64,000 bases of DNA, taken from contig JAYWIR010000058.1 in the NCBI GenBank assembly GCA_036172245.1, forward strand, positions 186,001-250,000, given 5' to 3'. This document shows positions 10,596-40,534 of this stretch, piece by piece (position 1 is the stretch's first letter; each line of letters begins with the position of its first letter). The stretch comes from Raillietiella orientalis (taxonomy: Eukaryota). The notes beneath the pieces were generated by a model that saw only the letters and a program-made list of their open reading frames with translations, ran no database searches and had not been told where the DNA came from. Both the position numbers and the translations under genes were made by a program.

Positions 10596-10631
10596 CAATG
10601 ATTTCTCTATCGTATTTTTCATACTATCCAT
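10530..10631 (-). pseudogene. Duplicated EXOSC5 5' fragment (12 codons) fused to antisense LINE sequence; 33-aa chimeric ORF
   Basis: Mirror of 34369-34404. Reads MDSMKNTIEKSL, then DAVLRVPGAPPRLCALPECTH* across the junction at 10596/10595. Confidence 0.8.
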
Positions 10632-12180
10632 TCTAACTGTTTTTGATCCTGAACACTTATCGTTTCCTTATCCTTTCTGATACCAACAGATGAGACTTAT
10701 GTCGCAACTACATGATAGAGAATTTACAAAATACATTACAAGTGAAATTATTTTAACAAGAAATTTTTTCAAATTCAGTTCATGGCAAAATCGTCCTCCA
10801 AAATTGCTCGTTCCCAATCCTAATTATTAACAAATGTCTTTCTCAAAAAAGAATGCTATTCATTTTGAAGCTCCGAATTCATATTTTGATGTTTCAATAA
10901 TCGATTTTTCATGAGAAACCAAAGTGAGGGGGTTTATCCCACAAAAACCTCTAGACATAAACCTCAGTGTTTCTCCATGCTCAAGAGCTTAAACAATCAG
11001 AAAATCCCAAGCAATACCGAAGCAGGAGTCACAGCCATACAAAAAATTTGTGTCTGAAGTTACATAAACTACGGAATTTAAACAAGAATTAAACTGACTT
11101 TCTTTCCTTTTTTTTCCCCCGTGTTTTTCTCCACGAACACACAGCCACCGCATCGCTCCGCTCATGCGACCGGGCGCACTGAAATTTCAGTCTTTCCAGC
11201 AATTCACGTTACCAAAGCAGCCTTCAGTTCGGAGCATGGGAGAAAAAAAACAAGTTTTTCTTCTAGAAACCTGATTTCCACATCCGAAGGAGCACACTGC
11301 GTCCTGGGAGCCGCGGCAACTGCCTACTGGTGGCGCAAAGAAATGAGTGGGCGAGCAGCAACTTTGAGGTTTCTCTTTTCGTTTTTTTTCCTTTTTTTCT
11401 ATTCAGATCTTCAGCGCGGTGCAGCACTTTTGGAGGCCGGGAACCGAAGAAGAAACTGAAGAAGACAAACGAGATGAAAGTTTGCAGCGCGCATCGTCGA
11501 GGGGCAGTGCACGCTGGCCGGAACTTCTGTTGCTACCCGGGGGAGGAAGGGGAACCTCCCCTGGTGGTGATTTGGGTAAGTTTAGGGACCGCGACAATCG
11601 CCGTCTCTCCGTCTTCCAGGAGTCGCGCGCCTGGAAGCAATTCATACGGAACCACGCGCCAAAGTAGGCGCGCCGTTGGGCACCTTGAGACAGGTTCGCG
11701 GCTTCAAATTCAATAAATTTTTACAAGGGCGTTCGTCTTTGCTTCATTTCGTGATGTTCACGTAGCGGACACCTGGTCCAGCTGCCTCCGAAAGACAGAG
11801 TCGGATCGGCGCACGACCCGTTCCCGGGTGGCGAGTTCGTCTTGCGGGAAGGGGCCGTAGCGTGGAGCACGGATGTGGCTCCCCTGCTTCGCCTCTTGCA
11901 TTTTGTTTGCCCCTCCCCGAGCACTGCGAAGAAGCGGACCGAGGGGGCCTCGGATCTTGGTGCTCTGAAATCCCGGTGCATCTAGACTTGCGTCGATAGT
12001 CGGGCGCTCTGCATGGCACCCGCAAGGTGGATAAAGGGAGGAAGCCTTCGAAGGGGCCACTCGCAGGGAAAATGTCGGAATTAATGCACCACTTCGTTCG
12101 GAGTTCGAGACGCTGCAGCAGGGAGCCATTTGCCGTTGGCGTGGAGAAACATCTGCATAGAGTTACTGGAGTATACTCGG

Positions 12181-12270
12181 AATGTACATGTACGTACGTG
12201 CAAGTACATGTATGTATGTGTGCATGTCTTTCTGCAACCAGAGTACGCATGTGCGTACGTATGCACGTTG
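12181..12270. repeat. Alternating purine-pyrimidine low-complexity tract (TACA/TACG/TATG); mirror at about 32730-32819
   Basis: atgtacatgtacgtacgtgcaagtacatgtatgtatgtgtgcatg...gtacgcatgtgcgtacgtatgcacgt. Confidence 0.7.
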
Positions 12271-13399
12271 CTTTTACGGGAAAGTTAGCCCAAGTAATCC
12301 TTCCAAGATTCCTGGGGGGCATCTTTGGCGAAGCACTCGAAATGCTGCGGCAGAAATCTCTACGGCCAGCGATTCCCGAATGGAGACACGGAATCGAACA
12401 ACATAAACGGGCAGGTTGAAGATGAAGGAAATCTCATCCCGGAATGCCGAGCGCATGGAGCGTCCGAGAGAACTGCACGGGAGACGAGAAATCCGACCTC
12501 CTCGCTTGGAACTACGCTCTAAAAGCCTGGTCTGTTTTCGAAACAAAAAACAATGCAAACAAAAGAAATAGACAAGCAACGTGTCTTTCTCTAAAATCTC
12601 ACCTAAGCGGAGATCATCTCGCGGCAACGTAGGAAAGCCAACACTTTTTCCTGAAGAGTGGCGAACTTTCTGACGCCTGAAGTTGGAGCTATGCGAGAAG
12701 ACCAACTGCAAGATGGAGACAGCATGAGTGCAGGCTCCAAAAGTCCCCGTTTGCCCCTCTTTCTGAAAACCCCGGGCCCATTCGCTCCATCATCAAATAC
12801 ATTCTCCCAGCATGTAAGCTCCTCTTCTCCTTCAGAGCATCAGCTAGCAGTGTGTGAGGGCTGCATAAGCTGGGTTGTCCCTACCTTGCACAAACTGTGC
12901 CCGGGAGCACTTCCGGAACGAACGTACGAAGAGGCTTGCTTCTAAAGAGTAGAATCTCACATGGAGCTCGCTACTTCCGTGTGCTGCATCCAGATAAACA
13001 GCTTGCAAATCGTTGGATAAGAAAAAATTTCCTTCTCGTTTAGCCAAGTTCACTAGAGCGACGGAATGCACATCTATATCATTGTACTGAAATATAGGTG
13101 TATACATCTATGCACACTTCACAACGACCTCTGTTGGAAGGAACTTCGTTACAACGACTCGTGTCTTTTCATCTTCCGAGAAAAAGAGTGGCTGGGGAGC
13201 AAAATGTTTGCAAGACCAGCACTGACGTTGGCTTCGAACTGTTGTGTACAGCATTTTGCCAAGGTGGACGCTGCAGCAAGCGAAAACAAAAGAAGCAAAG
13301 GCACCGCAGGAACTCCTCCAGAGAAGTACTGGGGCTGTGAGCAGGTGATGGCGAAAGTTCTGGCAATGAAAGAGAGGGGAGGCTGCGGCAACGTGTCTG

Positions 13400-15290
13400 C
13401 GCTTGGCTGACTCATCTCCCCTATCCTGGTTCCCTCTCTGAGAGCAGGCAAGAGCATCCGTCTCCTTCGCCCGGCTGCCTGCGGGCAACAGCTGAGCGCC
13501 GGTATTCCATGGGTTCCGGTACCGACGGAGACGGGTCGCTATCCAGGTCGTGGTCTCGCTGGTGCCCGTCTCGGGAGCATCGGAGAGCACGAGGCTCGAG
13601 CTTTTCGCGCGCCCCTCGTCGCCCGCTCTTCTTGCAAAGTGAGGGAACGAAACGGCCAGCTTCGGGTGCCCCTCTTTGCACCGTGTCCAGCAAGTCCCGT
13701 CGACGACATCCATCGTCGCCTCAGGGCGACGAGGAGATGTCGAGCCTCCTTCGAGGTGCCGCGGCACTCCGCAGAGGCCAAGCTTTCCGATCAACCGCGG
13801 GCGGACTGCCTTTTCGCCGACCTGCAGCCCACGGGAAAGCCTCCTCTTGCCCCCCACAGCGACGTGCGCGTCAGTATTCGAACCCTGTCCTGCAGCCGGG
13901 AAGTGCAAAAGTGACTGCCACCTCCCAAGTGGGGACCACGTCGCGATCCACGCTTTTCGCAGCGATGCTTCCGAGCTGGATCGCAGCGATGCTGCCTCAT
14001 GCACCTGGCAACACTTTTCGCCCTGCGTCACCCGGAAAGTACTCCATCAGGTGCTGAGTGTCGCATCCCGCACCACGCCGCCACGCACCCACCCACACAC
14101 CGCTTCCGCAAAGCCCTACTGTGGATTCGCAGTCGCCGTTGCGCACGCTCGATCTCTTTCCCGCGATTGTGAGCCACCCCGCTGCGACTTGCGCTGGCGC
14201 TGCGCGTCCGCCCGCGTGCCTGCAGCGGAAGCAGTTGCCCGGAATCTCTTTGGCGCGCTCTCCCTCCCTCTCTTCGGGAAGCTTCATTGCCGCGACGCCT
14301 GCGCTGGGGTGGACGGGGTTCGACGGCTGGACCTTCACGCTGGTGGATGGACTGCACGGACCACCGCAACCGTAAACGCAACCGACAGCTTCCCTCTTCG
14401 TTCGACAGGTACGGCGCACTTCGCCTGGCCGACGGCCCTTCGAAGCGCAGCTCTTCCGGATCGGTGGATCGGGAACAACCAGGCACTTCGCAATGCGACG
14501 GAGGAAGGCGCGTCCGCAAAGTTCCACCCAACGGCATGCCCTTACAGGCAATTGGATGGAAGGATGGTTCATCGCTCGGTAGACCGAAGGGCATTTTGTG
14601 TTGAACTTTCGAACGGGAATCAGGCATTCCTCATTTTCCCGTTCCCGTTCTTCGCTTCTCCGTGGACTTGGCGTCGGCTGCGCCACTTCAAGGGACTGTC
14701 CGCATCGGGTTCTCCTCCGTCCCAGACCTCTAGGATCTCTCTGGAGCATTCGCTACCATTTCCAAAACGGGCGCCGACAGCAGCGGCGGCGCCCCCCGGT
14801 GAGCTCTCTCGCCCGAACCCTTTCGCGCGCACCGTCGCCGCCCTCCTCCTGCTTCGCCGGAACCCGGAGAACCTGCCGTCTTCCAGCAACGACGCGGCGG
14901 AGGACAGGGGCAGGTCTGCAGCTCGGCAGTTAGGTGCGGGCCCGGCGCTGGACAGCCAGCCGCGGTTGCCCCGGTCTGCGAGTCGTGTTACACGCCCTTG
15001 AGAGGGTCCCTGCTTCCGTCCGCCTTACTGTCCATGGCAACCGGGAGCTTCTGTCGTGGGATCCGAGGAACGTCGCGGCGTTCGCTGCATTCACTCAGCT
15101 GCAGTGCCGCCGCTCGCCCGAATGGGCCCACTGACCGACGCTTGCGCATCCGACGGTCCGAGGTTCAGGTCCGGCCTTCTCATCCCATGTCCAGCTGGAG
15201 AGCAGGTCGAGGTGACCTCGCTCCCGGTGTGTCTGATCGTTTGCTTTACTGGACGCGCTCCAGCCACCCAGATGGGAACTCTTGAGGGAA
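13400..15290 (-). mobile_element. Decayed Ty3/Gypsy pol (RT, RNase H, integrase), truncated copy inside the left arm
   Basis: MPFGL at 14594-14580; VQPSNPVHPSAGVAAMKLP; TQGEKCCQVHEAASL. Mirror of the element in the right arm, but lacking the gag/protease part. Confidence 0.65.
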
Positions 15291-16370
15291 GAAACTATGA
15301 AATGGTCCTCCATGATTTCGTTCAAGAATAATTTTTGCGAAAAGGTATTTTAGTTTTCCTTTGAGATGGATTAGCACATGTACAGAATGTATATTGAGGA
15401 TCTGAAAAGTCTACCCACACCTATTTTCGTCTGAAGATGGGTGAATAAATGACAGAACTTCTATTTGTGGAAAGGCCGAAATTTCCACAATTTTTCAAAG
15501 TGGTTGGGGAAGTCTTTTGTTTTCGTTGGTTTATTAAATGTGCTAGTTATTTTTCGATAATGATTGAATATGAGGATCATTCAGTTTATAAAGCTAGCAT
15601 TTGTAAAGCATTTTAATCATATGATTTGTCTGGAAGTGTTTCCTCTGTATAGAAACAAGCGAATCAAAATCATTCTTCCTCTGGAAAACTGCAATAGTTT
15701 GAAATCGTCTCTGGGAAACGTTGAATAAGTGATTTATTTGTTCCATGATAGGAAGTACATATAATGTATTTATGTGGATACAATTTGAAGATCGTATCAC
15801 TTCCTTTTATTTTAGACAATACTTTTTCCCCTTCGCATCATATGTACCCAGTCATGTAAGGAGGTGAGTTTTAATGGCTTAAGGATTGAGCGTCTGGTAA
15901 GCTCATCTATGGGCTGCAATATTGCTAAAATTTCTTAACGTGGGATTCGCACTTACTAGTAAAACTTTGCATGGTTGTACTGTTACCAAATAGAATGCTC
16001 AGCAAAAATATAGGGGAATTTGACATTTTTTGCAGCTATCCAAGTTCACAAAGATTGCATTCATTACTTTACATTCAGTCTGAAGTTACTGTTTCTGCTT
16101 GAGTCGATGTTTACTGATTCACGTTGTTGTGTATATTATTCACAGTCCAATGCCTTGTAATCACACGGAAAGGATTGCGTTAGAAAATTTTCCTTCTTTG
16201 CTCAACAGTGTCATCACCAGCAAACGGTGGGATGGTTTGAGCTCGCAAGCATTCTTTTGTTTAATTATTCTTCTTTTGCTTTCTCATTTTGGGATCTAAA
16301 CTTTGCTGCATTATGCTGATCTATGCGGTCTCGGCGAGTCGCAAAGTCGGAAGTCTATGTGGAGTCGAAG

Positions 16371-17210
16371 ATTCTTTGAATGGAAATGGATGATGGAAAA
16401 TCCTTTGGGGTTCTTTTCTGTCTTCACTGTTTTTCTTCCGGCCCCTTTTTTTTTGTTTTTTTTTTTGTTCGCCAAGCACTGAAGAACCGTTTACCTGGCG
16501 GCTCACGAAGCTCCTTAACGCTGTTCCACGCCATTCGAGGGTGCATGTGAACTAATGGAGATAGGGACATATAGGGAGGGGAGCACCCTATGAATCCAGG
16601 AAGGGGTTCAGAGAGGGGAGGCTGTTCCTCTCACGCCTGGGAGGGATCTCCGAAGGAACCCTCAGTCCTGGTTGTCTCCCAAGGGAACCTCTTCCTTATT
16701 CTCTCCAGAGTGACCTCCGGAGGGGTCTGCTCCATTTCTTCCCCGGAGGGAACTCGCACGGGAACCGCTCCTTGTTACTCCTCTGAAGAGAACTGCGAAG
16801 GGATGCTTCCGAATTTTCTCTGAAGGGCGCTCCCTGAGGGGTGCAGCAGGCTTCTTCATACTCTGGGGAGGCATCATCAATTCGCCAGCTCCACAAGATG
16901 GGGATCCCCCTGAGGGGGAGGACGGCTCCTTTGCACACCCAGAAGGAACGAGACTCCTTGGTTCAGTTTCCTGGGAGGACCCCGGAGGGTCGACACCCAA
17001 TCCCGGCTATTCATAGGGGGATGGGATCCGGTTTTTCGGCTACCAGTACTGCACCCGAATATAGGCCAACCAGCGTCATCTTGCAGGAGGAACTCGGACC
17101 CACGACGCATTCATTTCTCTGGAGTCGACTCTTTCCAAATATTCGACCCCGCAACGTTTGATGCCACGCACGGAAACCGTAAATATGTAGCCTCCGATGC
17201 AGCACATACA
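16371..17210 (-). repeat. GC-rich dispersed repeat, homologous in opposite orientation to about 42150-42650
   Basis: Collinear shared blocks: tgcgtcgtgg, cgctggttggcc, ttcgggtg, aaaccgg, gccgggattgg, gaccctcc, ggttccc...gaagaaat. An 11-bp direct repeat tggagtcgaag lies at 16360-16370 and 17211-17221; T-run at about 16446-16466. Confidence 0.65.
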
Positions 17211-19219
17211 TGGAGTCGAAGTTTTTTAAGTAGACTTACTAAAGCCGAAAACTGAAGAAAGTATATCACTTCGTCATGTGTGATAAAACAATGTTGGCTT
17301 GAGGAGCTTCAAGCAGCATTGGTCTCTTTTGAAACAAAAAATCCATTACAGACTTCACTTCCAGGCTCGCCATGCTTTCATTACCTTCATCACAATTGAG
17401 CCTAATTAAAAGGCTCCACTAATAATGTAATTGCTCAATATTTTGAATGCCCATAATAAATTAGAAAATGACATTATATACAGAGTCATCACCTGGTGGC
17501 GTATTTTGGTGTGGCACCAGATTGATTCAATTTCAGTCTACTTAGCTTTGACATAAATACTAATGCGGGCTAAATCGAAAACTTTATTTTAGTTGGTCAA
17601 ATTTGTGTTCTGAGAAGAGTACTCCGTTTAAATCATTTGCCACATAGGAATTAAAACTATATTGTGTAATCTACGGGAAAAAAATGAGCAACATACACTG
17701 CAGCCTGAGGTAGCAGTTTTTATGCTGCTATGGTAATCTTCCAAACTTAACACATGTTCACTTTTTTGAGTTTGCACAAATTCAACTTTGCTATTGCGGT
17801 GTCAATTATGCTTGGCAGTTGCACAGTAAATTAGCTCAAAATGAATTATTCTTTGGGAAAGCGCTATTCCAATTTAGTTGAGACTAAAGATAAGTATTTT
17901 TTGTCAGCTAAGCTTGAATGAGGGAATCATGCCAAAATACGTTCAATTTTTTTGCCTTGTTGGTTCAGACTTACAAAAGCATGCTTTGGGAAGGCAACTT
18001 CCAAACTGATTAGTATGACATTTTTGATATTAGAAATGATTACTGGTACACTCATTTCTTTCAACACTCTCTGCAATATATTTACTAGAAATGCACTTCG
18101 ACCATATGATTTCCTTTACATAGAAGCCAGACTTTTCTCATTTGAAAGAAATACGATAAAAACAAAAAAACAATTAAAGATTTCCAAAAATGAAGTTTTT
18201 TAGTATACAATTGGAATAAATAAAACTTAAATCTATATAGTACATTGTAAACATCTAAAAACACAATAGTCTATTCAATATATAGTCTATTTCAATAGTC
18301 TACCCACATGTTAATAAGCTCATGACCACATGTATCATGCATATTTGATGTCAGTAATAGAAATTGCAGAAGAAAAAATAGTTTATGCATATTTGAGATT
18401 ATGGACTTGTGTAGTTTCTGAGATTCAGAGAACAAGATCACCTCAGTATGCCATTATGCTATTGGAGATTGTGCCTTCCTTTTACTGACTTGTAAAATAG
18501 GAATTTTTGACATCATCTAAACTTATGATCCCATAAATTTTGTACTACAACAATGCTTTTTTTTCACCTTTATGTCATCCCTGGAAAACAAAGATGTACC
18601 AAACAAGAATTTGTGAGTATAAATAACTGACAGACAATTCTTGTTGGTGATTGTGATTTTTCAAGTACTCTGAGATTTTTCTTTTAACATGGCATCTACC
18701 ACCAGAATTTTAATGTGTAATAATGAATTGTAAATTGCAAAATAATTTATCTAAGAAAATTGTAAAATGCTTCATATACTTTCTTGGATTTCAGTTTTTA
18801 AAGCTATTTGAAATTTAAAATATGCAACAGACAAAATAAGTGCACAATTAGCTTCAATTAATATAATTCACACTTCAGTTTTTTTTAATGCCAAAGATCA
18901 AGAGCCAGTTCATTTACATATGTATTAAATGAAAAGAAACCCTTGATACAAGTTAGCAAAAAGCTGCATAGATAGAGAAGAAAAAAAATCATGCTATAAT
19001 AAATAGAAAACACACAGTGCTTAAACTACATTTACAAAACACTAAATTTCAAAGAATTTCATAACATGAAGTGAAGACCTAAAATCTATCACTAAATCAT
19101 AGTAAATTATTCATAAATGGATACTGACTGCAAATCTATTGTGAATATGGTACAAAGGATTTTTTGATCATTGTGTTTATTTGCTCATTTGCTTTCCCTT
19201 ATTTATTGCTAAATCAACT

Positions 19220-19600
19220 TCAGTGTTCTTTAGATACCATTTGCCTCATTAGATTACCCACAAATTTCTCAATTTTCTTTAAGTCTTGGGAGAATTCAGT
19301 TTTATACTGTAGGCACTAAAACAAGCAAACAAAAAAAAAACGGAAACAAAGAAAGAAAAGAAAAAAAAGCAATATTTTTACAGTAATAAATAATTAAAGT
19401 CATTACCACGCAATCATCTGTAACTTTCAGATTTAATTTGCTTTGACTGTGATTGTATTTCATAACATATCTCACCTATTAATATATAACATTATTATTA
19501 TGCAATACTGAATTGATGAAAATCTCACCTTGGCAGGATTCTGAAAGTACAAACGTTCGGCAGCTTTCTCAAATTCTTCCCAAGATTTTAAATATGTCAT
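19220..19600 (-). CDS. SRP9: Signal recognition particle 9 kDa protein (78 aa, 3 coding exons)
   Basis: complement join(19220-19315, 19407-19475, 19529-19600) with GT-AG introns gives [78 protein letters not shown]. Minus-strand AATAAA at 19202-19207. Confidence 0.95.
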
Positions 19601-22600
19601 GACAAATACTATTCTACAATAATAATAATCTTTAATCCATACCACTGAACTGTTATCATATGTTTCATAGCAAATATGTACATGGGCAAATGAGTGCAAA
19701 CATTTTAATACAAATTCCGATTTAAGACTTTTACTCGAACACTTGCTGAAAAACATGGGGATTTGAAACATTAACATTATCCTATGTGATTTCATAACTG
19801 TTCTAAATCAGTTCATACAGTACATACTTTCAAAGAACATTAGTTTTCACTGCCAAGGTTGCATATTTTCATCTATTCAAAGTTAAAAAAGTTTACTTTT
19901 AAATTCAATTCATGAAAATTGTCTAATCATAAACAAGGAATAAAATTTTAAAATTTGCTTTTCAAACGCCTAAAAAGAACATCACGGATTTCTGTCATAG
20001 TGTTCAGGTTGAACAGGTTATAACAGAAAGAAAATAAGAAAATCTAGACCTAATAATGAAAATTCGTTTTTCCTTCATGACCAATTCCAAAATGAGGTTC
20101 TAATCACGCATCACAGTTTTTGAATTTTCTGGAAAGATTTCTTTATGGCGCTGCGCTTTCCAATCAACATATTCATGCTACGTATACGGCATGTGCTCGC
20201 ACGGTACTCAGAATCACAATTTTACACGGTATTCTATCTTGAACACGATGCAGAACTACCATCTTTTATTAGCTGCCACATTAAGTTCTTACGGTGATTA
20301 ATCATCAAAGAATACGCGGAAATAGTTTCGCCTCCCAGATTTCTTTACGAATTTAATTAAAGAGAGATGCGAGAAAAAAATAAAAGTTTTTCCAAAATAT
20401 TTGCATTTGCATCCTAGAGTGTTTGCATTCTCATTCTCACTCCCTTGATATTTTTATTATAGGATTGGGGGCTACTTTTCACAAACAAAAGAAACTTTTT
20501 TTCTTTTGCAAAGAAATCATCACTTGTTCACAATATTGGTTAGTTCTCATTCTGTTACAATGACCATGGACTCGAAGATATACTGCCACTTGGTCAGGAG
20601 GAAAACGAAATTAAATAACAAATACAGCAGATCTATCCAGTAAATTAAATTTGCACGATTGCTCATATAGCAAACAGTGAATTTCAGTTTTATGGATAGG
20701 AGAAATTTTCTGCGCTTACATTGACTAGAGATTATGCAATTTCTTAACTAGATGAATTTGCGATTTAATCCTAGTCAGTGTTTGTTTGTCTTCTTTTTCT
20801 ATCTCAGTAAAAGTAAGCATAAACAGAAAATAGCAGATGTAAACATTCCTGGTAGACGTTGGCATCGAAGATATTGCATTGTATATATACATTCAAGATG
20901 TATGAATTTATTATTATTTTACTGCCAAGTCAGTTGAAATTTTCAACTTTTTATCTTGGAACTAACTTACCTTCCACGGAATTTTTGATCTGATTTCAAG
21001 AATTCCAGAATTCTTTGCTAAAGAATTCTCTTCTAAACTGAGTATTCCAAGTTAGTTAGAGTTATTTTTTTAACCATACACCTCAAGCAGAAGAAAGCTA
21101 CGTATGAGGCTCTATTTTGTGCAAAGTAGCAGAATTTTCCATGTCTAAATGAAACTTTCCAAAAGCTGCTAGAAGTATATTTAAAGAATTTTCCTGAGAA
21201 CGTGACACATCACTTAATCAACATCTTCTGCCTTGAATCCTTAACAAAGAACAGAAAGTTCGTCTTTATTGAATATAAGAGTTGAATAAATTAGCAGGTC
21301 GCTGGAACAATGAGTGCGCTTTAAAATTTCATCCTAAATCTCATCCTAATTATTACCAAATATTCAATTGCATGGTTACTGGCCTTCCTCCCCATATTAA
21401 AAAATTCATCAGTAATACTCTTTTTGTTTGAATCAGAAACGGCTCTTTAGATGGATCTTTAGATCACGGAATCACTTTTGGAATGATGTAATATCGTATT
21501 CTTGTATTTATACACCTCAACAGTCAAGTTCCGTACGTATCAGTGGAATTCAATGCTGTTCACCGTTGATAGCCAAAGATGTTTATAGAATCCTTTCATT
21601 CTTTTTACTCAGAAGTGTAAAGATGATGAACTCCCGACAAAGACGTTTATAATTCAATTAGTCTTTCTGCAAACTCCAAAACACGTCATCACTAAGTAGC
21701 CCCCAAAAGTATTTGAGACAGCTCGAATAAATCGTGTTTAGTTTGTGAGTGATTATTTGTGTGCTACAGGATAAAAGTGTCTTTTTTATAGAAAGTGAGA
21801 ATTCTATGGAATAACTCTTAAACTTGTAAAAATCTTGTAAAAATCCATTAAGTTACAGATTTACTAAATGGTTTCTCTAGGAATGCTAAGAGAAAACATG
21901 CGTCTAAGTTTGGAAGAACTGTTCAGGATAACTAACAGAAAATAGGTAATCACTGATTTACACTCCCATTTTCCTTATTGTGTCTGTTGCCATAAACCTG
22001 TTTCTCAGGGCAGTTCGAGATACCACGCAAACGAGAAAATGAGTTTCCTGATGACAAATGATTGCTTATGAAGTTTTCACTCTATAACAGAAATATTTGT
22101 GTTCATCTGAAGCGATTTCTGATATTGATTGTGAAGACTATCTTATTTACTTTCGTTGCTATGAGACAGTCACAACACTCAACAGTGATCGATGTAGGCT
22201 TGTCACACTTGCATTGTGTTCGCTTTACTTAATAATCTGCAGCCTCTTAGGGAACTTGATGTTTCTGAAGTGCTATTCATTAAGCCGACGAAATTTTTGG
22301 TTTTTGAATGTTAACACTGTCTTCTGTGCTCCTTTTCATTAAAATGAAAAAAAAAACTGCACAGATTGAATGTGATCAAATTTTTCATGTATGAGTTTGA
22401 TCGTGAGGTTTCTCTGAATGTAAGAAAAGTTTGCACATTTTTACGAGAAAGCATATTCCAACATCTCTTTATCAAGAAACATTCCATATGAAAAATATAT
22501 TATGAAATTACTTTTTCTTTTTCCACTTTTTACGTTTATCATTATGTTCCAGATAATATTGTTCGACAACATCTAATGTTGAAAGTCGCTCTCATAGGAA

Positions 22601-25600
22601 GCTAGAATCTAATTACATGCTCAGATTTATCAGATTCCTTTTTTTTTCTTCGAAATAAACGGAAACGGATAAGTGAATGGAATGGTTCACACGAAAGGGT
22701 GACTACCCAGATTGCATCTGATATAGTACGCATCCCTTCTTCCTGCCCCCCCCCCCCTCTCCCCCTTTCCCATGAATCGCAGATGCGGCGAAGATCGTCG
22801 TATAAACGGACTCGTATAACGCAACTAAAAAATGGAGACTGTCCTCGCAATGACGGTAAATCAACTGTGAGGAGGATGCCGTGGGTATCTTTAGTGTTGT
22901 AGTGCAGTGTCAGTTCAGCTGTTTATTTAGAACGCGAACACAGGATTTAAGTAGGATGAATACTGTCTCTTCCAAACTGGTGAGCTGAGCAGCTCATGAA
23001 GATAGGTTTCTCAACAACGAGAACGATAGAACTGTTTAAATTTAAGAGATAGAAGTTTTTTATTGTTATTTCAAGCTCAGTAATAGAGCAGCATTTTTCA
23101 TTTTTGTTTTAAAGTGGAATAATAAATATTTTGTCGTTACAATCTTTGTCGTTCATATCTTTCATGCATACTATCGTGTTATCTATGTATAGGGCTGATA
23201 TAACATGGAGCGTATCTTCCGTTTTATACGAAGGGACGTTTTATATCTTGCTCTGTGAGCTTTGTTCTAGATTGACCAAGGATGAGTGTCTTTTATCATC
23301 GTTATTCCATAGCAACGATCGTTTAAAAGAACTTTCTTGACCGTCCTGCTTGTCAGGTTCTGTTTCAGTTCATTCTCGAAGCTGATGGATTGCATACTAT
23401 AACAAAAATTACAAATAGAACAACCTCTTCAGAAAATTCTGCGAAAGAAAGAATATGCTGAACACAAAAGAAATAAATCATTCTTCAATGTATTTGATTA
23501 ATATTAATTTACTCAATTTAATGTGAGGCATTCTAAAATGAGAGTCAGAGGAACTGCTTTACTTGTGGTTCTATTGTAAAAGAGCAATTGTAATGGAGAA
23601 TTTATTAACCACTATTTTCGTTGTTATTTAGCACATATGCATTGAGTATTTCATCTTCGTTTCCTTCTCTTTCGGGCTCTAGGAGGAGAAGAATATCATT
23701 CTCTCACACAGGTCCTTTCACGTTCTGTATAATACATCGTGAAGACTCATCTAAGAATTCGACACGTACCTGCATGCGCCCCTGTGATCCTGTGCAGCCT
23801 ATTATTGTTGTAACTCTAGCAAGTTTTACTTTATCCATTCTTCAGATCTAATTATATGCAACTTTTTCCAAGCACACATATGTTTCCTTCAGGACGGTCA
23901 AGAAAGTCTTCGTGAAGTTAATGAACCTAATTCAGTGATGCATCACTTTCAGATGAGCACTTTTGGGGGAAGTCCTTCTTATTCGACATAATCTTCCCAT
24001 ATAAATTAGAAACAAGTAGGAAAAAAAAAAGAGAGTGGAACAATCGGATCTTGGTGCAGAGGCAAGCATCGTAAAGACGTCACGGCGTGCGACATCAAAA
24101 TTGCCACCAATCAAGGCTCACGCAAAACATGATTCGATCCGTCTTATTTAGCTTTGCCATTTCATTAAACATGCTGGCAGAATTTGTTTTTCCGCTGGGC
24201 ATTTTAGTTGTTGATTCTTATATTACACTTCTCGCTTTCTATCTCTCCGATCCGGATTCACACCTGAACTGAACTTCGTAAGATGCAGTTATGTTTGCTT
24301 AGTCTTTCCTTTCATGTTGTGAGTTTGTCATTCTGTTTGGGGAAACCCATGCTTCCTGATTTCTGAATCGTTTGTGAATGAACGATTCTGTTCTTTGAAA
24401 ATATAAAGGGGATACAATCTGCTATGCAATCAAAAGTGTAGTCGTGGATTTAGATCGTAGACCAGATTGCCTTCATCTTGAACTCTCAACTGCTGAAATT
24501 GTCTGCGACTATCACGTTTATTCCATGGCGAAAAGTGAGGATCAACAAAGCAACTTTTCTACTAATCGAAATTGTCGAATTGTAAATGGCTTTTGTAAAA
24601 TAATGAGTAGAATGGCTTCTCCTTCACTTAAGTCATTCAGTTCGCTGAATGACTTGAAAAACATTGCTTTGAACACATCTAAAATCAACAAAAAGCAGAA
24701 GCATCAGGAGGAAAAATCATCTAAAACGAATACAATGTATCGGTGTGGGCAGTAGTGGGCATCAAATATGCGTTCTGCATGCAGTAAATGAACAGTGGAC
24801 TTCCAATCGAACTCTACTCTAATCTGTCTCCATAATTGTCTCCAAATATGACAAGCATGTAGTAGGAATCAATCTTCTTGAGGAATTAAAAGAAATCCAT
24901 CGGAAACACGAGTTTTTCTGAAGCTCTGCTAACATAAAAATAGGTTTTTTTAAAAAATGATTTCCCCTTGGTCAAGTTTATTCTTCCTTCTCGAGGTCCG
25001 AACGGTTTCCTCTTTAAGAGCAATAAACATATTTCCATCCACAAAAGTGAAGATGAAAAACGATTACAAAGAAAATGCATGCGACCATCCATATTGAAAG
25101 AGTCTTTCAAAAGACTCAGGGACAGAAAAGCATTAGCACAATCACGATTAAAAAATCTGATCAGAGTATCTCATTTAGATATTTTGATCCATAACGAATG
25201 GTTTAAAATTCAGGTGAGAGAGAAGTGTGCATCAAAAACTGAATGTACAGAATAGTGAGCTGAGAATTAGAAACATTCCGTTGATCGGAGGAACGAAATC
25301 TGTCGATAGTCTGAAGAAAGGAATCCAATATACAATACACATATTTTAATAAGAAAAAAAAAGAAAAAATAGAGAGAAGAGAATAAAAAATGGATGTTCT
25401 AACTCTAAAAGGATATAGCAAGCACTAAACGATGGCTCTTAAAGTTGAAGGATTCGTTTTCAATAGGAGAAAGTAACTTATCTCTAGTGAAGAGTTGTGT
25501 CCAAAGAGTTTTCCAATTTGGAGGCTGGATGCTGTTTCCAGGGAGCATCCATTTGTTTTTTTAAAAAAGAAGTTCGGTTGTGGGATTCTGTTTCACTGTA

Positions 25601-26899
25601 CCGCTTCTCGTGACATAGCATTTGAAAATAGATCCCTTGTACCTGAAACCTATGTATGATGATGGTGTTAGAATAATATGAATCAAAAAGTTCGTCTTAA
25701 TGAGGGATTTTGAAACCAGCTCTAACTGCATTTGTTACAAGACTGAAGGTCATCCTTCTTCTGGATGTGCACCATGAAAACGGAACTTCATATCACAACT
25801 TCAGGCAAGTTTCGCCCAAGTGCTTGGCAAAAAATCCATTCCTCTTGTTCAGAGGACTTACTGATTTCATGTACCAGCAATTTTCAGAAATTCCCTACTG
25901 CTATTCTTGCATTCTTTCAAATATTTCTGCAGAAAATTTAGTATTCCTCGTGAAGACCAAGTGACTGAATGAATTTTAGAAGAATAGCTCACCTTGAAGC
26001 AATACTACTGTTTTTTTGCTTTAAGTTCTGTCATCCCGTAAACAGAAAATCTTTCGCTTCATTAATCAAAAGAATATTCTAAAAGAATATTCATGAGCGC
26101 CACCAAGTAGTTTTCCTATATCCAGCAGAGATCTTTCTCTGATCCTGTCTTACCAAAGCAATGCAAAACATTTTTTGCGCTTCTGTGAGGAATCGATTCC
26201 ATCGTGTGGTGAAACAACAAAAATGCATAAGAAATCGATTCACTGCAAAATGTGGCAGCCATCAGTTTGACTGAGTCAGCAATTCCAGGCATAACTTGGC
26301 TGGTACACAAATAAAATTCCAAGACAGCTACACACAAATGGTCAGTACATATAACACTCGAGAAGCAAGGCTTTCATGAAAACTTCCACTTGAGGAGCGT
26401 AAACTCAAAGCTCTGAATAAAATTGTATACTTATGGATATTTATATTGTACATTCATACACATCATGTGCACTTAAATTGAAATTCATCAGTTGTAATGG
26501 TTGTGGAGCTGACGCCAAAAGATGATCCATGGACTTCCTTTGTAGCTTTTATATTCGTGCCTTATACCTTCACTCTCAAGATTTCAAATCCCGTTGTTTC
26601 CTAAATTCATAGATGGCGCAGATGGTTGCACGATCAAACTTGAGGACAAATGAAAGGTTGAACGTGCTGCTATCTAGCGTGCGGAGTCCAACTTCTAAGG
26701 AAAGAATGATTATCAAATGATCATCAGTTGATGGTAACGTTCTTCTCAGAAAAAGTAGTATTTTTCTTCCAGCACTGAAGACAGAAGGAGCAAGAGATCG
26801 GTAAGAACCAGCGGATGCTTCCAGTGAGTGTCACAGGAGCTTTGGATGTAAAACGCTCCATTTCCTTTCTGTTGCGCTGAGTCTTGTTTCTTTGAGCAC

Positions 26900-27730
26900 T
26901 GCATCATTTCCTTGGTCCTAAGGATTCCAGAACGAGTGCCTGTACCGAGCGGGAGCTCCGTTGGTGAAAGAGTGGGAAGATTTTTCCCGTTATCTGCTTT
27001 CCTTTCGTTAGTCTCGTTTTCTCCAAGACCATCGTGGAGCTTTCCAAGGAACCCGATGATGTGGACGGTGTTGGCTCGTCCCTAGCCTGACAGCAGCAAG
27101 CCCTCTCAAGGCAAGAAGTCGGTCCCAGATCTATACCTGGAGTTACCCCTGCCTTCTTGATCCGTTCTATCTCGTCGTGACTCACCACGATTGGACCGGA
27201 TGATTGATGCGACGATTAAGAACTAAACGAGAGATTCTTACCAGGTCTTGACCACTTAGTCCAAATCGAAAGAGCTACTCAACAAGCTTGTAGTGGTCCT
27301 AAGCTCCAAAGGCTGGGAATGAAAACTGGTGGTCCTCAACCAACTGACACACGAGATTCGATTCAAAAGTTTAGTGTTCGAGAGAGAAAGGCGAGTTGTT
27401 GTACTCCACGTGTTTTGTACTTTTGAGGTTCCGTGACAGCTCCACAGGGCGTCAGGCGGAGAACGGAATGAGGATACCAGGGGTCGGTCCTGCGATTCTC
27501 CATCAGAGGAGTGCCTGCTTCAGTGCAAACACTCGTCGTAGGATTCCCAGGACTCCAAGAAGCGTTGAAGATGAAGACGTCTCGTAGCCAAGCGGAAAAG
27601 AGATGGTGTGTTCTGGCATGCAGCCTTCATGAGATTTCTGAAAAATTGCTGGCTTCGTCTCGACCTCCAATAACGATTGGCCATCTTCAAAATCCACAGC
27701 CACTTCTAGAGGGCTAGATGGAAAGGATCA
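26900..27730 (-). mobile_element. Decayed LTR-retrotransposon integrase core fragment
   Basis: PSSPLEVAVDFEDGQSLLEVE resembles PxxPWxxVxxDF...YLvvVD; SGSLESSTMVLEKTRLTK resembles SNGxxERxxxxLKxxLxK. Confidence 0.4.
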
Positions 27731-28199
27731 AACCTATCAAACACCCTCATCAAACACCCCTTGGAAGTGACTAAAGAGTGAATAAAATGAAAGAAAAAAA
27801 ATCCTTAAAGAGTGAGTTTCCGCAAAGCTCTCAAGTTAAACCTGAAACGCTCGTTCCAAAGCGCCCTCCAGGACTGCTGTAGAGGCTTGTGTTGGAGAAT
27901 CAAGGGAAACATTCAGGAAGATAGAACACTAAAGCTCTTCTTCCTCTTGTTTAAAACATAAGGGAACGAAAACGTATCCTGGAAAGCAGTTCATCCCGGT
28001 GTTTTGCGTAAGGCAGGATCCCGGTGAGACTTAGGCTGAGGAGCAAGAAGTAACCTTCTAACGTTGTATTTCCTCTAAGGTATCGGGAACATTTTCAGGT
28101 CTGGAGCAGGAACAGGGTAGCATTCCAAACCCATATCCGGGAATTCCGTTTCGGAAATTGCTGTGGTACTAGAGCATCTGGACCTTTTCTTGAAAAGAT

Positions 28200-31100
28200 A
28201 AATTCGCCGATTCTTCGAAATTGAAACAAACGCTTATTTGGATCAGGGTCTGCTTGGTGTTGGGGGCAGGTGTTTCCACACAACTGAGGCCACTCCAACT
28301 CAGTGCAGCAGGAAGGATTGGGAGGCAATCCGGTGAATGGAAGACAACAAATGCAATTTCGGGATTCTGCTCTAGAGGAAGACTGGGTCACGGCAAAAGA
28401 CCCAATTCAGATGACTCGTAGCGACAGTGAGGAGGAGGACTTCAAAGCCCGCCTCACTTGCTCTGTCGCCGCCTCTCAGCCCGAAATGAAGAGCTCTTCA
28501 GTATTCTATGCAACGTGCAACAGGTGGAGCATGTGCCTGCCATGAGAGAAAGTTGACCACCCGGAGGCCAACAGAAAGAGTGTGGTTGCTGAATGGGTGA
28601 TGAGAAATACGGATGAATTCCTCTGCGTCGAGGAAAATCGGAAAACGGGAACGACGGCCCATCGGCGATTACCCTGAGGTCAAAGGAAACAAAAAGCAAA
28701 AAAAAAAGCGTATTTTAAGCACCGAAGATAGGAATGAGGATTCAGGATGGTGAATGATTGTCAGCATTTTCTAAAATTGGTCAAAGAGGACGTGATATTC
28801 TGACTCAAGTGGACAGCAGTGTCAGGAATCCCTGACTACAAGTGTCGCTGACACCTGTAGTCAGGGATTCTCTCTCATCGAACGTCTGCTCACGCACGAT
28901 CTGCTGCATATGTGAGATCACCACACTGATTCCGCATCCTCCTACGAACGAAACTTCTGCAAACCGCTCTTAGATAATAAACAATTGCATCGACACCCTC
29001 TGCATTCTGTGGAAGAACAGACCGCAATGCCAAACTTGGTCTTGCCGTACTCAATGAATGCAGTCATCAGAACGGGTTCAACGGGAGCGAGAGGATAGTC
29101 TTCCTTGTGTCCAACGTAGAGTGATGCTCGGTTATCACGCACACTTGCATTTCGAGAAATGAACCCCGAGGAGAGTTTGATGAAAGTGGAGTTCAGAAAC
29201 TGGCAGGAGACTCCGAAATCTCCCCAAACCCCATCACCGTCCCTAAGAAGAAGCTGATGTCGGTGACTTTCGAGATCAAGGGAGCACGAGATCCCTTTCC
29301 AAGCAGGATCTGTTCTTCATCCGCTACCATTCATTTCCAGGATGCAGCTGCACCATTTCTTCTTATATGAAAGAAATGGCAATGGCAATTGAAACTCCAA
29401 TAGCCAGAGAACGGCGTCCTCCGCCATGCCGGGTATCCTGGAAGTTCCCAACTGTGCGAGGCTTCCGAAATCATGCGCATGCAGCGGCTGAAATCTCAGC
29501 CCCAGAACGGGCCAAGGGAAGGTTTGTCCGTTTACACAGCTGGCTTTCCACCTTTTGCATGGATGACGCCTTCAAAGCAGCACTCCCACTTCTCTCTAAG
29601 GACTCCCATCGCTGCATCTTCGATCGAGCGCAAAGTGTGGGCCTCGTCACCTAGACGCGAGACATACTCTGATATATCCTCTAGACAAGCTCATCAGGAT
29701 AACAGACAGTTCCCTCGAGAGTTCCCATCTGGGTGGCTGGAGCGCGTCCAGTAAAGCAAACGATCAGACACACCGGGAGCGAGGTCACCTCGACCTGCTC
29801 TCCAGCTGGACATGGGATGAGAAGGCCGGACCTGAACCTCGGACCGTCGGATGCGCAAGCGTCGGTCAGTGGGCCCATTCGGGCGAGCGGCGGCACTGCA
29901 GCTGAGTGAATGCAGCGAACGCCGCGACGTTCCTCGGATCCCACGACAGAAGCTCCCGGTTGCCATGGACAGTAAGGCGGACGGAAGCAGGGACCCTCTC
30001 AAGGGCGTGTAACACGACTCGCAGACCGGGGCAACCGCGGCTGGCTGTCCAGCGCCGGGCCCGCACCTAACTGCCGAGCTGCAGACCTGCCCCTGTCCTC
30101 CGCCGCGTCGTTGCTGGAAGACGGCAGGTTCTCCGGGTTCCGGCGAAGCAGGAGGAGGGCGGCGACGGTGCGCGCGAAAGGGTTCGGGCGAGAGAGCTCA
30201 CCGGGGGGCGCCGCCGCTGCTGTCGGCGCCCGTTTTGGAAATGGTAGCGAATGCTCCAGAGAGATCCTAGAGGTCTGGGACGGAGGAGAACCCGATGCGG
30301 ACAGTCCCTTGAAGTGGCGCAGCCGACGCCAAGTCCACGGAGAAGCGAAGAACGGGAACGGGAAAATGAGGAATGCCTGATTCCCGTTCGAAAGTTCAAC
30401 ACAAAATGCCCTTCGGTCTACCGAGCGATGAACCATCCTTCCATCCAATTGCCTGTAAGGGCATGCCGTTGGGTGGAACTTTGCGGACGCGCCTTCCTCC
30501 GTCGCATTGCGAAGTGCCTGGTTGTTCCCGATCCACCGATCCGGAAGAGCTGCGCTTCGAAGGGCCGTCGGCCAGGCGAAGTGCGCCGTACCTGTCGAAC
30601 GAAGAGGGAAGCTGTCGGTTGCGTTTACGGTTGCGGTGGTCCGTGCAGTCCATCCACCAGCGTGAAGGTCCAGCCGTCGAACCCCGTCCACCCCAGCGCA
30701 GGCGTCGCGGCAATGAAGCTTCCCGAAGAGAGGGAGGGAGAGCGCGCCAAAGAGATTCCGGGCAACTGCTTCCGCTGCAGGCACGCGGGCGGACGCGCAG
30801 CGCCAGCGCAAGTCGCAGCGGGGTGGCTCACAATCGCGGGAAAGAGATCGAGCGTGCGCAACGGCGACTGCGAATCCACAGTAGGGCTTTGCGGAAGCGG
30901 TGTGTGGGTGGGTGCGTGGCGGCGTGGTGCGGGATGCGACACTCAGCACCTGATGGAGTACTTTCCGGGTGACGCAGGGCGAAAAGTGTTGCCAGGTGCA
31001 TGAGGCAGCATCGCTGCGATCCAGCTCGGAAGCATCGCTGCGAAAAGCGTGGATCGCGACGTGGTCCCCACTTGGGAGGTGGCAGTCACTTTTGCACTTC

Positions 31101-31600
31101 CCGGCTGCAGGACAGGGTTCGAATACTGACGCGCACGTCGCTGTGGGGGGCAAGAGGAGGCTTTCCCGTGGGCTGCAGGTCGGCGAAAAGGCAGTCCGCC
31201 CGCGGTTGATCGGAAAGCTTGGCCTCTGCGGAGTGCCGCGGCACCTCGAAGGAGGCTCGACATCTCCTCGTCGCCCTGAGGCGACGATGGATGTCGTCGA
31301 CGGGACTTGCTGGACACGGTGCAAAGAGGGGCACCCGAAGCTGGCCGTTTCGTTCCCTCACTTTGCAAGAAGAGCGGGCGACGAGGGGCGCGCGAAAAGC
31401 TCGAGCCTCGTGCTCTCCGATGCTCCCGAGACGGGCACCAGCGAGACCACGACCTGGATAGCGACCCGTCTCCGTCGGTACCGGAACCCATGGAATACCG
31501 GCGCTCAGCTGTTGCCCGCAGGCAGCCGGGCGAAGGAGACGGATGCTCTTGCCTGCTCTCAGAGAGGGAACCAGGATAGGGGAGATGAGTCAGCCAAGCG
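28200..31600 (+). mobile_element. Decayed Ty3/Gypsy element (gag-like, protease, RT, RNase H, integrase remnants), continuous across the inner end of the right arm
   Basis: AVIRTGST at about 29060 (DTGS-like protease motif); RESSPGGAAAAVGARFGNG (SPW..V.K..G-like); MPFGL at 30406-30420; NFADA (YxDD position); then RNase H and integrase remnants in Gypsy order. No LTRs recognised. Confidence 0.65.
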
Positions 31601-34404
31601 CAGACACGTTGCCGCAGCCTCCCCTCTCTTTCATTGCCAGAACTTTCGCCATCACCTGCTCACAGCCCCAGTACTTCTCTGGAGGAGTTCCTGCGGTGCC
31701 TTTGCTTCTTTTGTTTTCGCTTGCTGCAGCGTCCACCTTGGCAAAATGCTGTACACAACAGTTCGAAGCCAACGTCAGTGCTGGTCTTGCAAACATTTTG
31801 CTCCCCAGCCACTCTTTTTCTCGGAAGATGAAAAGACACGAGTCGTTGTAACGAAGTTCCTTCCAACAGAGGTCGTTGTGAAGTGTGCATAGATGTATAC
31901 ACCTATATTTCAGTACAATGATATAGATGTGCATTCCGTCGCTCTAGTGAACTTGGCTAAACGAGAAGGAAATTTTTTCTTATCCAACGATTTGCAAGCT
32001 GTTTATCTGGATGCAGCACACGGAAGTAGCGAGCTCCATGTGAGATTCTACTCTTTAGAAGCAAGCCTCTTCGTACGTTCGTTCCGGAAGTGCTCCCGGG
32101 CACAGTTTGTGCAAGGTAGGGACAACCCAGCTTATGCAGCCCTCACACACTGCTAGCTGATGCTCTGAAGGAGAAGAGGAGCTTACATGCTGGGAGAATG
32201 TATTTGATGATGGAGCGAATGGGCCCGGGGTTTTCAGAAAGAGGGGCAAACGGGGACTTTTGGAGCCTGCACTCATGCTGTCTCCATCTTGCAGTTGGTC
32301 TTCTCGCATAGCTCCAACTTCAGGCGTCAGAAAGTTCGCCACTCTTCAGGAAAAAGTGTTGGCTTTCCTACGTTGCCGCGAGATGATCTCAGCTTAGGTG
32401 AGATTTTAGAGAAAGACACGTTGCTTGTCTATTTCTTTTGTTTGCATTGTTTTTTGTTTCGAAAACAGACCAGGCTTTTAGAGCGTAGTTCCAAGCGAGG
32501 AGGTCGGATTTCTCGTCTCCCGTGCAGTTCTCTCGGACGCTCCATGCGCTCGGCATTCCGGGATGAGATTTCCTTCATCTTCAACCTGCCCGTTTATGTT
32601 GTTCGATTCCGTGTCTCCATTCGGGAATCGCTGGCAGTAGAGATTTCTGCCGCAGCATTTCGAGTGCTTCGCCAAAGATGCCCCCCAGGAATCTTGGAAG
32701 GATTACTTGGGCTAACTTTCCCGTAAAAGCAACGTGCATACGTACGCACATGCGTACTCTGGTTGCAGAAAGACATGCACACATACATACATGTACTTGC
32801 ACGTACGTACATGTACATTCCGAGTATACTCCAGTAACTCTATGCAGATGTTTCTCCACGCCAACGGCAAATGGCTCCCTGCTGCAGCGTCTCGAACTCC
32901 GAACGAAGTGGTGCATTAATTCCGACATTTTCCCTGCGAGTGGCCCCTTCGAAGGCTTCCTCCCTTTATCCACCTTGCGGGTGCCATGCAGAGCGCCCGA
33001 CTATCGACGCAAGTCTAGATGCACCGGGATTTCAGAGCACCAAGATCCGAGGCCCCCTCGGTCCGCTTCTTCGCAGTGCTCGGGGAGGGGCAAACAAAAT
33101 GCAAGAGGCGAAGCAGGGGAGCCACATCCGTGCTCCACGCTACGGCCCCTTCCCGCAAGACGAACTCGCCACCCGGGAACGGGTCGTGCGCCGATCCGAC
33201 TCTGTCTTTCGGAGGCAGCTGGACCAGGTGTCCGCTACGTGAACATCACGAAATGAAGCAAAGACGAACGCCCTTGTAAAAATTTATTGAATTTGAAGCC
33301 GCGAACCTGTCTCAAGGTGCCCAACGGCGCGCCTACTTTGGCGCGTGGTTCCGTATGAATTGCTTCCAGGCGCGCGACTCCTGGAAGACGGAGAGACGGC
33401 GATTGTCGCGGTCCCTAAACTTACCCAAATCACCACCAGGGGAGGTTCCCCTTCCTCCCCCGGGTAGCAACAGAAGTTCCGGCCAGCGTGCACTGCCCCT
33501 CGACGATGCGCGCTGCAAACTTTCATCTCGTTTGTCTTCTTCAGTTTCTTCTTCGGTTCCCGGCCTCCAAAAGTGCTGCACCGCGCTGAAGATCTGAATA
33601 GAAAAAAAGGAAAAAAAACGAAAAGAGAAACCTCAAAGTTGCTGCTCGCCCACTCATTTCTTTGCGCCACCAGTAGGCAGTTGCCGCGGCTCCCAGGACG
33701 CAGTGTGCTCCTTCGGATGTGGAAATCAGGTTTCTAGAAGAAAAACTTGTTTTTTTTCTCCCATGCTCCGAACTGAAGGCTGCTTTGGTAACGTGAATTG
33801 CTGGAAAGACTGAAATTTCAGTGCGCCCGGTCGCATGAGCGGAGCGATGCGGTGGCTGTGTGTTCGTGGAGAAAAACACGGGGGAAAAAAAAGGAAAGAA
33901 AGTCAGTTTAATTCTTGTTTAAATTCCGTAGTTTATGTAACTTCAGACACAAATTTTTTGTATGGCTGTGACTCCTGCTTCGGTATTGCTTGGGATTTTC
34001 TGATTGTTTAAGCTCTTGAGCATGGAGAAACACTGAGGTTTATGTCTAGAGGTTTTTGTGGGATAAACCCCCTCACTTTGGTTTCTCATGAAAAATCGAT
34101 TATTGAAACATCAAAATATGAATTCGGAGCTTCAAAATGAATAGCATTCTTTTTTGAGAAAGACATTTGTTAATAATTAGGATTGGGAACGAGCAATTTT
34201 GGAGGACGATTTTGCCATGAACTGAATTTGAAAAAATTTCTTGTTAAAATAATTTCACTTGTAATGTATTTTGTAAATTCTCTATCATGTAGTTGCGACA
34301 TAAGTCTCATCTGTTGGTATCAGAAAGGATAAGGAAACGATAAGTGTTCAGGATCAAAAACAGTTAGAATGGATAGTATGAAAAATACGATAGAGAAATC
34401 ATTG
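29710..34404. repeat. Right (source) arm of the 4,695-bp inverted duplication
   Basis: Reverse complement of 10596-15290. Continues in frame into EXOSC5 exon 1 on the right and into upstream Gypsy remnants on the left. Confidence 0.98.
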
Positions 34405-35273
34405 AGAGTGCATTCATGCGAACAAGGATGTCTTTCACAAGCTGATGGCTCAGCCTTATACGTTCAGGGTATGCAAATCAAAAACTGAAATAAAAAAAAG
34501 TTAACATCAAAAATTTGAGAAATGAACTGTTGATGACAGTTGCTGTTGCATGTTTATTTCAAGGTGATACGGTTGTTCTTGCAACTGTCATTGGTCCTAC
34601 TGAAGTCAAGTCTCAGAAATTTATGATTGATCGTGCTACAGTAGAAGTTGTTTATAATCCCAGAGTTGGGATTTCAGGTTGAAATCAGTCCTTATGAATA
34701 TTTAAACCTTTTTTTTTTCTTTACAGCTATTGGTGATAAATTGAAAACACAATTAATCCGAAATAGCTGTGAAACAGTGCTTTTAGCCACACTTCATCCA
34801 CGAACTTCCATTGTGGTAAGTTTACAAGAAATGCAAGATTTTGGAGGGGTGAGTTCCCATTTGAAAATCTTAGAAACCTCAAATCAGTTATTATCATGTT
34901 GCATTAACGCCATGTGTATGGCATTATTAGATGCTGGCCTATCTATGAGATTTTTGATTGCTGCTGTGACATGTGGTATAACTCATAATGGGGAAATAAT
35001 AGTAGATCCAACTGATAAACAATTGAAGGTATTGGTGCAGTGAAGTTTAGAAACAAATGAGTTCATTCTTCTGAGTTCTTTTTACAGGATTGTAACTGTT
35101 CCCTAACTCTTGCTTTTGACAGTCAAAACTTTGAAGTCTTGGCATGTTGGACCGAAGGTTGGTATCTACCTCAGCAAGCCATGAATTGTATGGAAGCTGC
35201 ACGACAAGCTAGCAAACAGATTTTTGGTTTTTATCGAAATGCAATCAAACGCAGGTTTATTAAAGAGCAATGA
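34369..35273 (+). CDS. EXOSC5: Exosome complex component RRP46 (220 aa, 5 coding exons)
   Basis: join(34369-34468, 34564-34677, 34727-34848, 34888-35028, 35088-35273) = 663 nt, GT-AG introns. Motifs [69 protein letters not shown] match RNase PH-fold RRP46. The start could instead be the second ATG at 34378. Confidence 0.95.
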
Positions 35274-40462: not shown

Positions 40463-40518
40463 CAGGGAATAGTTTAATAGAATATTTTGCTTACAACAAA
40501 AAGGAAAAATTTCTTTAA
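40463..40518 (+). tRNA. trnV: Mitochondrial-type tRNA-Val(TAC) copy in the NUMT, apparently without a T-arm
   Basis: Anticodon arm ttttg-ctTACaa-caaaa; D region tagtttaatagaata; acceptor cagggaa/ttcttta; only about 9 nt (aggaaaaat) in place of the variable loop and T-arm. Confidence 0.7.
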
Positions 40519-40534
40519 AAATTTAAAATTGAAA

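Follow-up and report, generated by a model that had tools for sequence, protein, structure and literature searches.

Introduction

Mirror-image repeats of the kind described here are already known from flies and humans. In Drosophila, as far as excerpts of three reports describe them (PMC1885836, PMC4965816, PMC6861252), inversions produced by staggered breaks carry inverted duplicates of non-repetitive DNA at the two ends of the segment, with a partial gene copy beside the intact original; these duplications measure between 46 bp and 8-9 kb, and breakpoint reuse is described. For D. subobscura in particular, the excerpts give both duplications of up to 8-9 kb and such reuse (PMC4965816, PMC6861252). 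Human rearrangements of the duplicated-normal-duplicated (DUP-NML-DUP) or duplicated-normal-inverted/duplicated (DUP-NML-INV/DUP) type, linked to template switching at stalled forks (FoSTeS) or microhomology-mediated break-induced replication (MMBIR), combine this copy pattern with inversion-type junctions and short microhomology (excerpts of PMC9851044, PMC4888836). Young C. elegans duplicates, as summarised in part of PMC4546093, are intrachromosomal, adjacent and mostly inverted, and partial or chimeric copies are frequent among them. Here, we analyze a 64,000-nucleotide stretch of the Raillietiella orientalis assembly GCA_036172245.1 (contig JAYWIR010000058.1, positions 186,001 to 250,000; hereafter the window), in which two 4.7-kb inverted arms enclose a single-copy spacer and the right arm ends inside the first exon of an EXOSC5/RRP46-like gene (the EXOSC5 locus).

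Our sequence comparisons suggest a recent exchange of reversed copies between two stretches that lie about 19 kb from each other. We consider it likely that the structure is a real, very young rearrangement, and we give a probability of roughly one half to a more specific reading, namely that local templated copying repaired breaks here and left this structure as its scar, an inverted copy being followed by a one-sided copy across the resulting junction.

The locus resembles each of the systems above and differs from each. Its arms fall within the size range of the Drosophila duplications. However, a two-sided staggered inversion gives the order L-B-a-s-b-A-R in the part of PMC1885836 that sets out the model, whereas the EXOSC5 locus reads L-a-B-S-b-A-R (letters as in Table 1, R being the right flank), its pieces forming one continuous arm with three junction types and no evident net inversion. 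Judging from the paralogues, L and B stand in their ancestral order, and so, on 17 bp, probably does the beginning of the spacer. The segment is 14 kb long while the Drosophila inversions are cytological. The assembly shares the human copy pattern, with B and A present twice and S once, but the EXOSC5 locus is of kilobase scale, comes from the germline assembly of a small animal, and has one junction twice and an extra loss of 120 bp. It differs from the C. elegans duplicates in its composite arm, here in a probable arthropod (the genome holds 14 matches to the RR chitin-binding family). A search for nematode cuticle collagen came up empty, which says little either way.

The inverted pair and its genomic context

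Read in reverse complement, 29710-34404 aligns with 10596-15290 across 4,695 columns, of which 3 are mismatches (left-arm positions 12364, 12609 and 15283); there are 0 gaps (E=0), and the identity breaks off abruptly at either end. Mirror comparison and self-BLAST thus reproduced the arm length, the 3 substitutions without net indel and the 14,419-bp spacer given in an earlier note on this DNA. The third mismatch, 7 bp from the inner end, may be part of the junction. The sole other self-match within the window (self-BLAST) is a 45-bp imperfect hairpin in the spacer (28826-28870).

The window lies on a 753-kb contig (C58) of an assembly of 210 Mb in 491 contigs, the largest reaching 12 Mb, and 510 kb of C58 contain 0 N. 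A genome search with the arm listed 43 matches (best 40 of 623 candidates scored), among which two copies are near-identical and all others partial and 66-85% identical. In searches over three junction regions, none of the matches listed was a further near-identical copy of a flank or a spacer end, so no alternative haplotype was seen. Both the window and C58 are GC mosaics in which AT-rich blocks (26-40% GC) with compact genes and short introns alternate, across sharp boundaries, with GC-rich blocks (50-64%). Rfam gave 0 matches in the window at gathering thresholds.

The mirror coordinates of the arms sum to 45,000 in the window, exactly as the earlier note had pointed out, and to 417,000 on the contig. 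The 7 other inverted pairs listed all lack a round sum, so this one looks like a chance coincidence.

Table 1. Features of the EXOSC5 locus (window positions) and further local two-copy pairs (contig positions)
Feature	Position	Strand	Remarks
L, left flank	9572..10595	+	Start of a GC-rich multicopy family copy, which breaks off at 10595
a, extra inverted EXOSC5 upstream region and first 12 codons	10596..11096	-	Replaces ~120 bp (x) of the family copy
B, native left copy	11097..15290	+	Rest of the family copy (to ~13370), unique GC-rich DNA, 28S fragment
Decayed 28S rRNA fragment	14656..15307	-	~65% identical to dispersed rDNA pieces; innermost ~630 bp of the arm
S, single-copy spacer	15291..29709	.	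14,419 bp; SRP9-like gene, high-copy repeat ~16385-17200
b, extra inverted copy of B	29710..33903	-	29709/29710 junction probably new
A, native copy of the EXOSC5 upstream region with codons 1-12	33904..34404	+	Frame crosses 34404/34405 into the conserved N-terminus
EXOSC5/RRP46-like gene	34369..35273	+	Pfam RNase_PH E=9e-7; 7 homologues, 42-52% identity
Local two-copy pairs	C58:76016-124569, 280652-390273, 404445-469095, 422623-424241		
Local two-copy pairs	C1:3042173-3048345, 3109665-3117120		

Structure of the arm

The arm is a splice of two pieces, each native to one side of the spacer: about 500 bp from the right and about 4.2 kb from the left. The evidence for the left piece comes from seven paralogues of the multicopy family, one on contig C37 and six on C7. 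Five of the seven reach junction 10595/10596; in the other two a short deletion immediately precedes it. The AT-rich 500 bp (a) is skipped by all seven, whose alignment picks up again at about 11093. The C37 paralogue matches 9572-10595 at 71% and stops exactly at the junction; a further paralogue on C15 spans 11098-13367. Because the seven paralogues join L to B without a, the inner 4.2 kb is native on the left. Arm positions 1-502 have no other genomic match among the matches listed, and the inner boundary of a is uncertain by about 5 bp. Between L and B, five measured paralogues hold 116-125 bp (x) that was sought in a and in the spacer and not found, 15 of 15 comparisons lying within shuffle scores; these alignments show that about 120 bp was lost from the left family copy.

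The evidence for the right piece comes from the EXOSC5 gene, whose model (4 exons, 233 aa, drawn by inspection) is intact. The outer end of the right arm sits in its exon 1 after codon 12, and since the frame continues past the arm end, the outer 500 bp is native on the right. The predicted gene retains its own upstream region and reading frame. At the level of sequence, these comparisons establish a composite arm and a native outer right junction, and we infer that an ancestral order L-x-B-S-A-R became L-a-B-S-b-A-R, probably with three new junctions, one of them present twice, and no net inversion of the spacer. The earlier idea of a very recent inverted duplication is borne out in that the event is young and local, but not as the duplication of one block, as the arm is composite with one part native on each side. 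The structure has no evident function; it leaves a predicted spare EXOSC5 5' end facing a repeat remnant, in which the copied ATG at 10631 opens a 33-codon chimeric ORF running leftwards into the remnant.

This composition bears on the possibility that the arms are long terminal inverted repeats (TIRs) of an element resembling Foldback or Mutator, or that the sequence was put there on purpose. The arm-spacer-arm shape and the round mirror sum are what such an origin would offer, yet the right end lies inside a coding exon, only two near-identical arm copies are among the matches listed, and the outer flanks differ and are no direct repeat, leaving no target-site duplication. Transposase and reverse-transcriptase families had 0 Pfam matches in 59 ORFs of left flank and arm and in 128 spacer ORFs, although short or decayed exons could escape. 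If a copy had been pasted in, the arm would be native on a single side, which the composite arm is not. We rejected the TIR/Foldback transposon on these grounds, in agreement with the earlier note, which had seen no target-site duplication or transposase signature and had denied that the arms are the TIRs of an ordinary element; an origin by element or placement is highly improbable. The same note had described the arms as host promoter DNA mixed with debris of transposable elements. The promoter part stands and in fact reaches 12 codons into EXOSC5, while the debris turned out to be an unclassified multicopy family and a 28S fragment, and its derivation from transposable elements found no backing, with no such protein family matched in the 59 ORFs. 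The L-B family has splice-like signals yet no Pfam identity, no Pfam family matched the long GC-rich ORFs of the arm, and the left flank gave only a zf-Nse match below the cut-off (E=6e-4). The idea of DIRS reverse-transcriptase debris, prompted by a motif, had no Pfam support.

Inner junctions and the 28S rRNA fragment

The innermost part of the arm derives from a decayed 28S rRNA fragment that probably runs about 17 bp beyond the left inner junction. When the comparison was extended past the last shared bases, the 28S continuation was matched at 10 of 17 positions on the left spacer side and at 7 of 17 on the right, scores reached by 0.3% and 7.8% of random positions, respectively (n=20,000). 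Because the extension is better on the left, we read the left inner junction as native, which these 17 bp weakly show, and 29709/29710 as probably new. The arm copy itself has no Rfam match, and one of its paralogues (L019) scores 967 bits with the large-subunit rRNA model. Such 28S fragments (L019-L028) lie scattered over ten contigs; those compared are 88-98% alike, and most have one end in common.

The 29709/29710 junction has a 7-bp overlap followed by one mismatch (the third mismatch), and junction 10596 would have about 2 bp of microhomology as deduced from the paralogues. The 5-mer CAGTT stands at both ends of b (29707-29711 and 33904-33908). It fits an insertion without loss and could also be there by chance, at about 5% by rough estimate.

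Origin of the structure

In the templated-copying reading, which we hold to be the most economical, B (4.2 kb) or A (0.5 kb) would first have been copied in inverted orientation into a break on the other side of the spacer, yielding the A/B junction and an inverted repeat. A second break beside the other copy would then have let the broken end invade the repeat; synthesis would have continued over the A/B junction into the adjacent piece before the strand rejoined via short microhomology, with loss of x. The product would be L-a-B-S-b-A-R, with the A/B junction twice, EXOSC5 intact and the spacer without net inversion. Because the junction occurs twice, we suppose that it was made once and then copied, and the second copying step would explain its doubling without coincidence. 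The order of the steps and the repair pathway are our inference. The second step draws on one-sided invasion with end joining. MMBIR is described in the excerpt of PMC4888836. Overlaps of a few bases at new junctions (7 bp at 29710 and, from the paralogues, about 2 bp at 10596) count for local copying. The genome holds matches to Ku (3) and to family-A polymerases (7), and their presence ruled out loss of classical end joining as a cause.

Two successive overlapping inversions that reuse a breakpoint would give the same product. The first would flip B-S and make the b/A junction; the second would flip spacer and arm with one 4.7-kb staggered end, reusing the left breakpoint and duplicating b-A. 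A native outer right and inner left junction combined with a new outer left and inner right junction is the one-sided staggered-break pattern, as drawn in part of PMC1885836, and duplications of up to 8 kb with molecular breakpoint reuse are known from D. subobscura according to the excerpt of PMC4965816. On the other hand, the second break must fall no more than about 120 bp from the first one on the L side, the spacer-side breaks must lie within a few bases of each other if the 5-mer at the ends of b is real, and L shares no homology with the reversed spacer end (longest common word 4 nt). We regard this double inversion as possible, though unlikely.

Other local pairs in the genome

Among young duplicates in the sampled genome, local inverted pairs are the most frequent. 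The sample of 680 kb (510 kb of C58, 120 kb of C1 and 50 kb of C2) was not selected for repeats, apart from including the EXOSC5 locus, and contains, at a threshold of at least 300 bp and at least 80% identity, 7 inverted pairs, the EXOSC5 locus included, and 2 direct ones, with identities of 90.6-99.9%; the 50 kb of C2 hold 0. Left out of this count were two rows from the tandem array with which C58 begins, as well as the C5 block, which was chosen for its doubled Ku match. The tandem array itself (C58:1-21315) consists of ~8.5-kb units of 94-96% identity. The recurrence of local inverted pairs indicates that the class is real in this genome. A private inverted pair neighbours the locus (window 334-1542 and C58:177050-178257; 1,209 bp, 99.2% identical, 8-kb spacer), with mismatches mostly at its ends. 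Further two-copy pairs (Table 1) measure 0.4-1.4 kb, are mostly inverted and are 90.6-99.5% identical, and a third near-identical copy was absent for all three pairs tested.

The inverted pair on C5 (C5:3768474-3794983; L097, L098, L101-L108) has 9.3-kb arms of 99.5% identity around a 7.9-kb spacer, doubles a Ku-domain gene and shows 13 indels, several of them within short repeats. Its GC steps match the pattern of the EXOSC5 locus junctions in composition only, a point in favour of two inversions. A search for a gene broken across its junctions gave no informative Pfam match in 23 ORFs.

An inverted pair on C37 (C37:2168832-2175490) was tried as a test of the staggered model and proved instead to be a 95% tract amid 70-80% paralogues of the L-B family, apparently a gene conversion between inverted old paralogues. 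Conversion tracts with diverged ends thus exist in this genome, and mismatches bunch near the ends in several other pairs, which could favour an older duplication at the EXOSC5 locus kept identical by arm-arm gene conversion, as the earlier note had proposed for its arms. However, no diverged homology continues past either end of the EXOSC5 arms, just one mismatch lies near an end, and the composite arm would be left unexplained, so this proposal is not upheld and we consider such an origin improbable.

Possible artefacts

Several observations weigh against a real rearrangement made by templated copying. The product is identical to that of two inversions. The 28S continuation depends on only 17 bp, and an unanchored test over 250 bp found no 28S continuation on the left or the right. 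The spacer end has no paralogue among the genome matches listed, and a protein search with its ORF returned only itself, so the former neighbour of the spacer end in the proposed order is a putative one. Finally, the two interior differences between the arms (12364 and 12609) are both G/T, and C:G-A:T transversions make up 10 of 13 differences in the EXOSC5 locus and the C5 pair, whereas seven older pairs have 67 of 288 (post hoc Fisher test, p=1e-4); for all five youngest pairs the count is 11 of 21 (p=0.007). Transitions predominate in the older pairs (152 of 288 differences). PacBio reads show a slight excess of A/C and G/T substitutions (excerpt of PMC7671305), and the arms may be identical, their differences being errors. 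We share the earlier caution that an artefact must be excluded. Error-like G/T differences are no basis for dating the event or for proving that there are two loci, and 3 substitutions are weak proof of the latter.

A structure that is artefactual in part would combine a real small inverted duplicate (e.g. a/A) with a single chimeric junction that came from amplification or from a chimeric long read and was resolved by way of the repeat. A single false junction, at 29709/29710, would be enough. In the available part of PMC9984789, chimeras from multiple displacement amplification (MDA) include inverted junctions with overlaps of 5-8 nt and a peak at 7 bp, the very overlap found at 29709/29710; excerpts of a preprint (bioRxiv 10.64898/2026.06.11.730069) report thousands of false inversions in MDA libraries; and the substitution class raised in PacBio reads (PMC7671305, in the same excerpt) dominates the two largest young pairs. 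Against this stand the distances, since MDA chimeras typically span 250-300 nt and usually less than 10 kb in the part of PMC9984789 concerned, whereas the EXOSC5 locus has normal flanks on both sides and needs jumps of 14-24 kb, the false junction alone requiring 14.4 kb, longer than is usual for an MDA chimera; this counts for a real event. In addition, there is no sign of amplified DNA, with contigs reaching 12 Mb, an alternative contig with the ancestral junction is absent among the matches listed, and the older pairs show the process to be biological. We judge a partial artefact rather unlikely, slightly more so than the double inversion.

Taken by itself, the EXOSC5 locus is an ordinary young structural variant whose history is unusually readable, as paralogues and a gene reveal the native sides. 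Pair density is about 1 per 100 kb in the sample, on the order of 2,000 genome-wide if the extrapolation holds. Should this density hold genome-wide and survive read checks, the species would be a good one for measuring small inverted duplications and micro-inversions, and it could show how such pairs arise, grow and convert, and whether captured housekeeping promoters start transcripts. If the youngest pairs are false, they would represent a class of false duplications in the assembly, the doubled Ku gene included. A bolder and quite unlikely idea is that this genome runs unusually active local inverted copying, in which small duplicates seed one-sided conversion and grow into multi-kb composite arms. 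The pairs would then be flip-flop cassettes with housekeeping genes (SRP9 in the EXOSC5 locus, the doubled Ku in the C5 pair) that lend promoters to new neighbours, and the EXOSC5 locus a growth step caught in the act.

Neighbouring genes

The first exon of the SRP9-like gene in the spacer starts at 19600 on the minus strand (SRP9 E=0.0024, below the Pfam cut-off), and the spacer could flip through recombination between the arms. Tail-to-tail with EXOSC5 lies an ATP synthase OSCP gene at about 35200-36700 on the minus strand (Pfam OSCP E=2e-5). An AT-rich stretch at about 40400-41500, which by its motifs resembles an inserted piece of mitochondrial DNA with 12S rRNA and a short tRNA, has no Rfam match and no clear gene under translation table 5. 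Farther right, a CFAP47-like gene occupies very long GC-rich ORFs at 49076-56060, two of which overlap in different frames at 54084-54585 (an intron or a frameshift), and a GDSL lipase-like ORF lies at 63083-63514.

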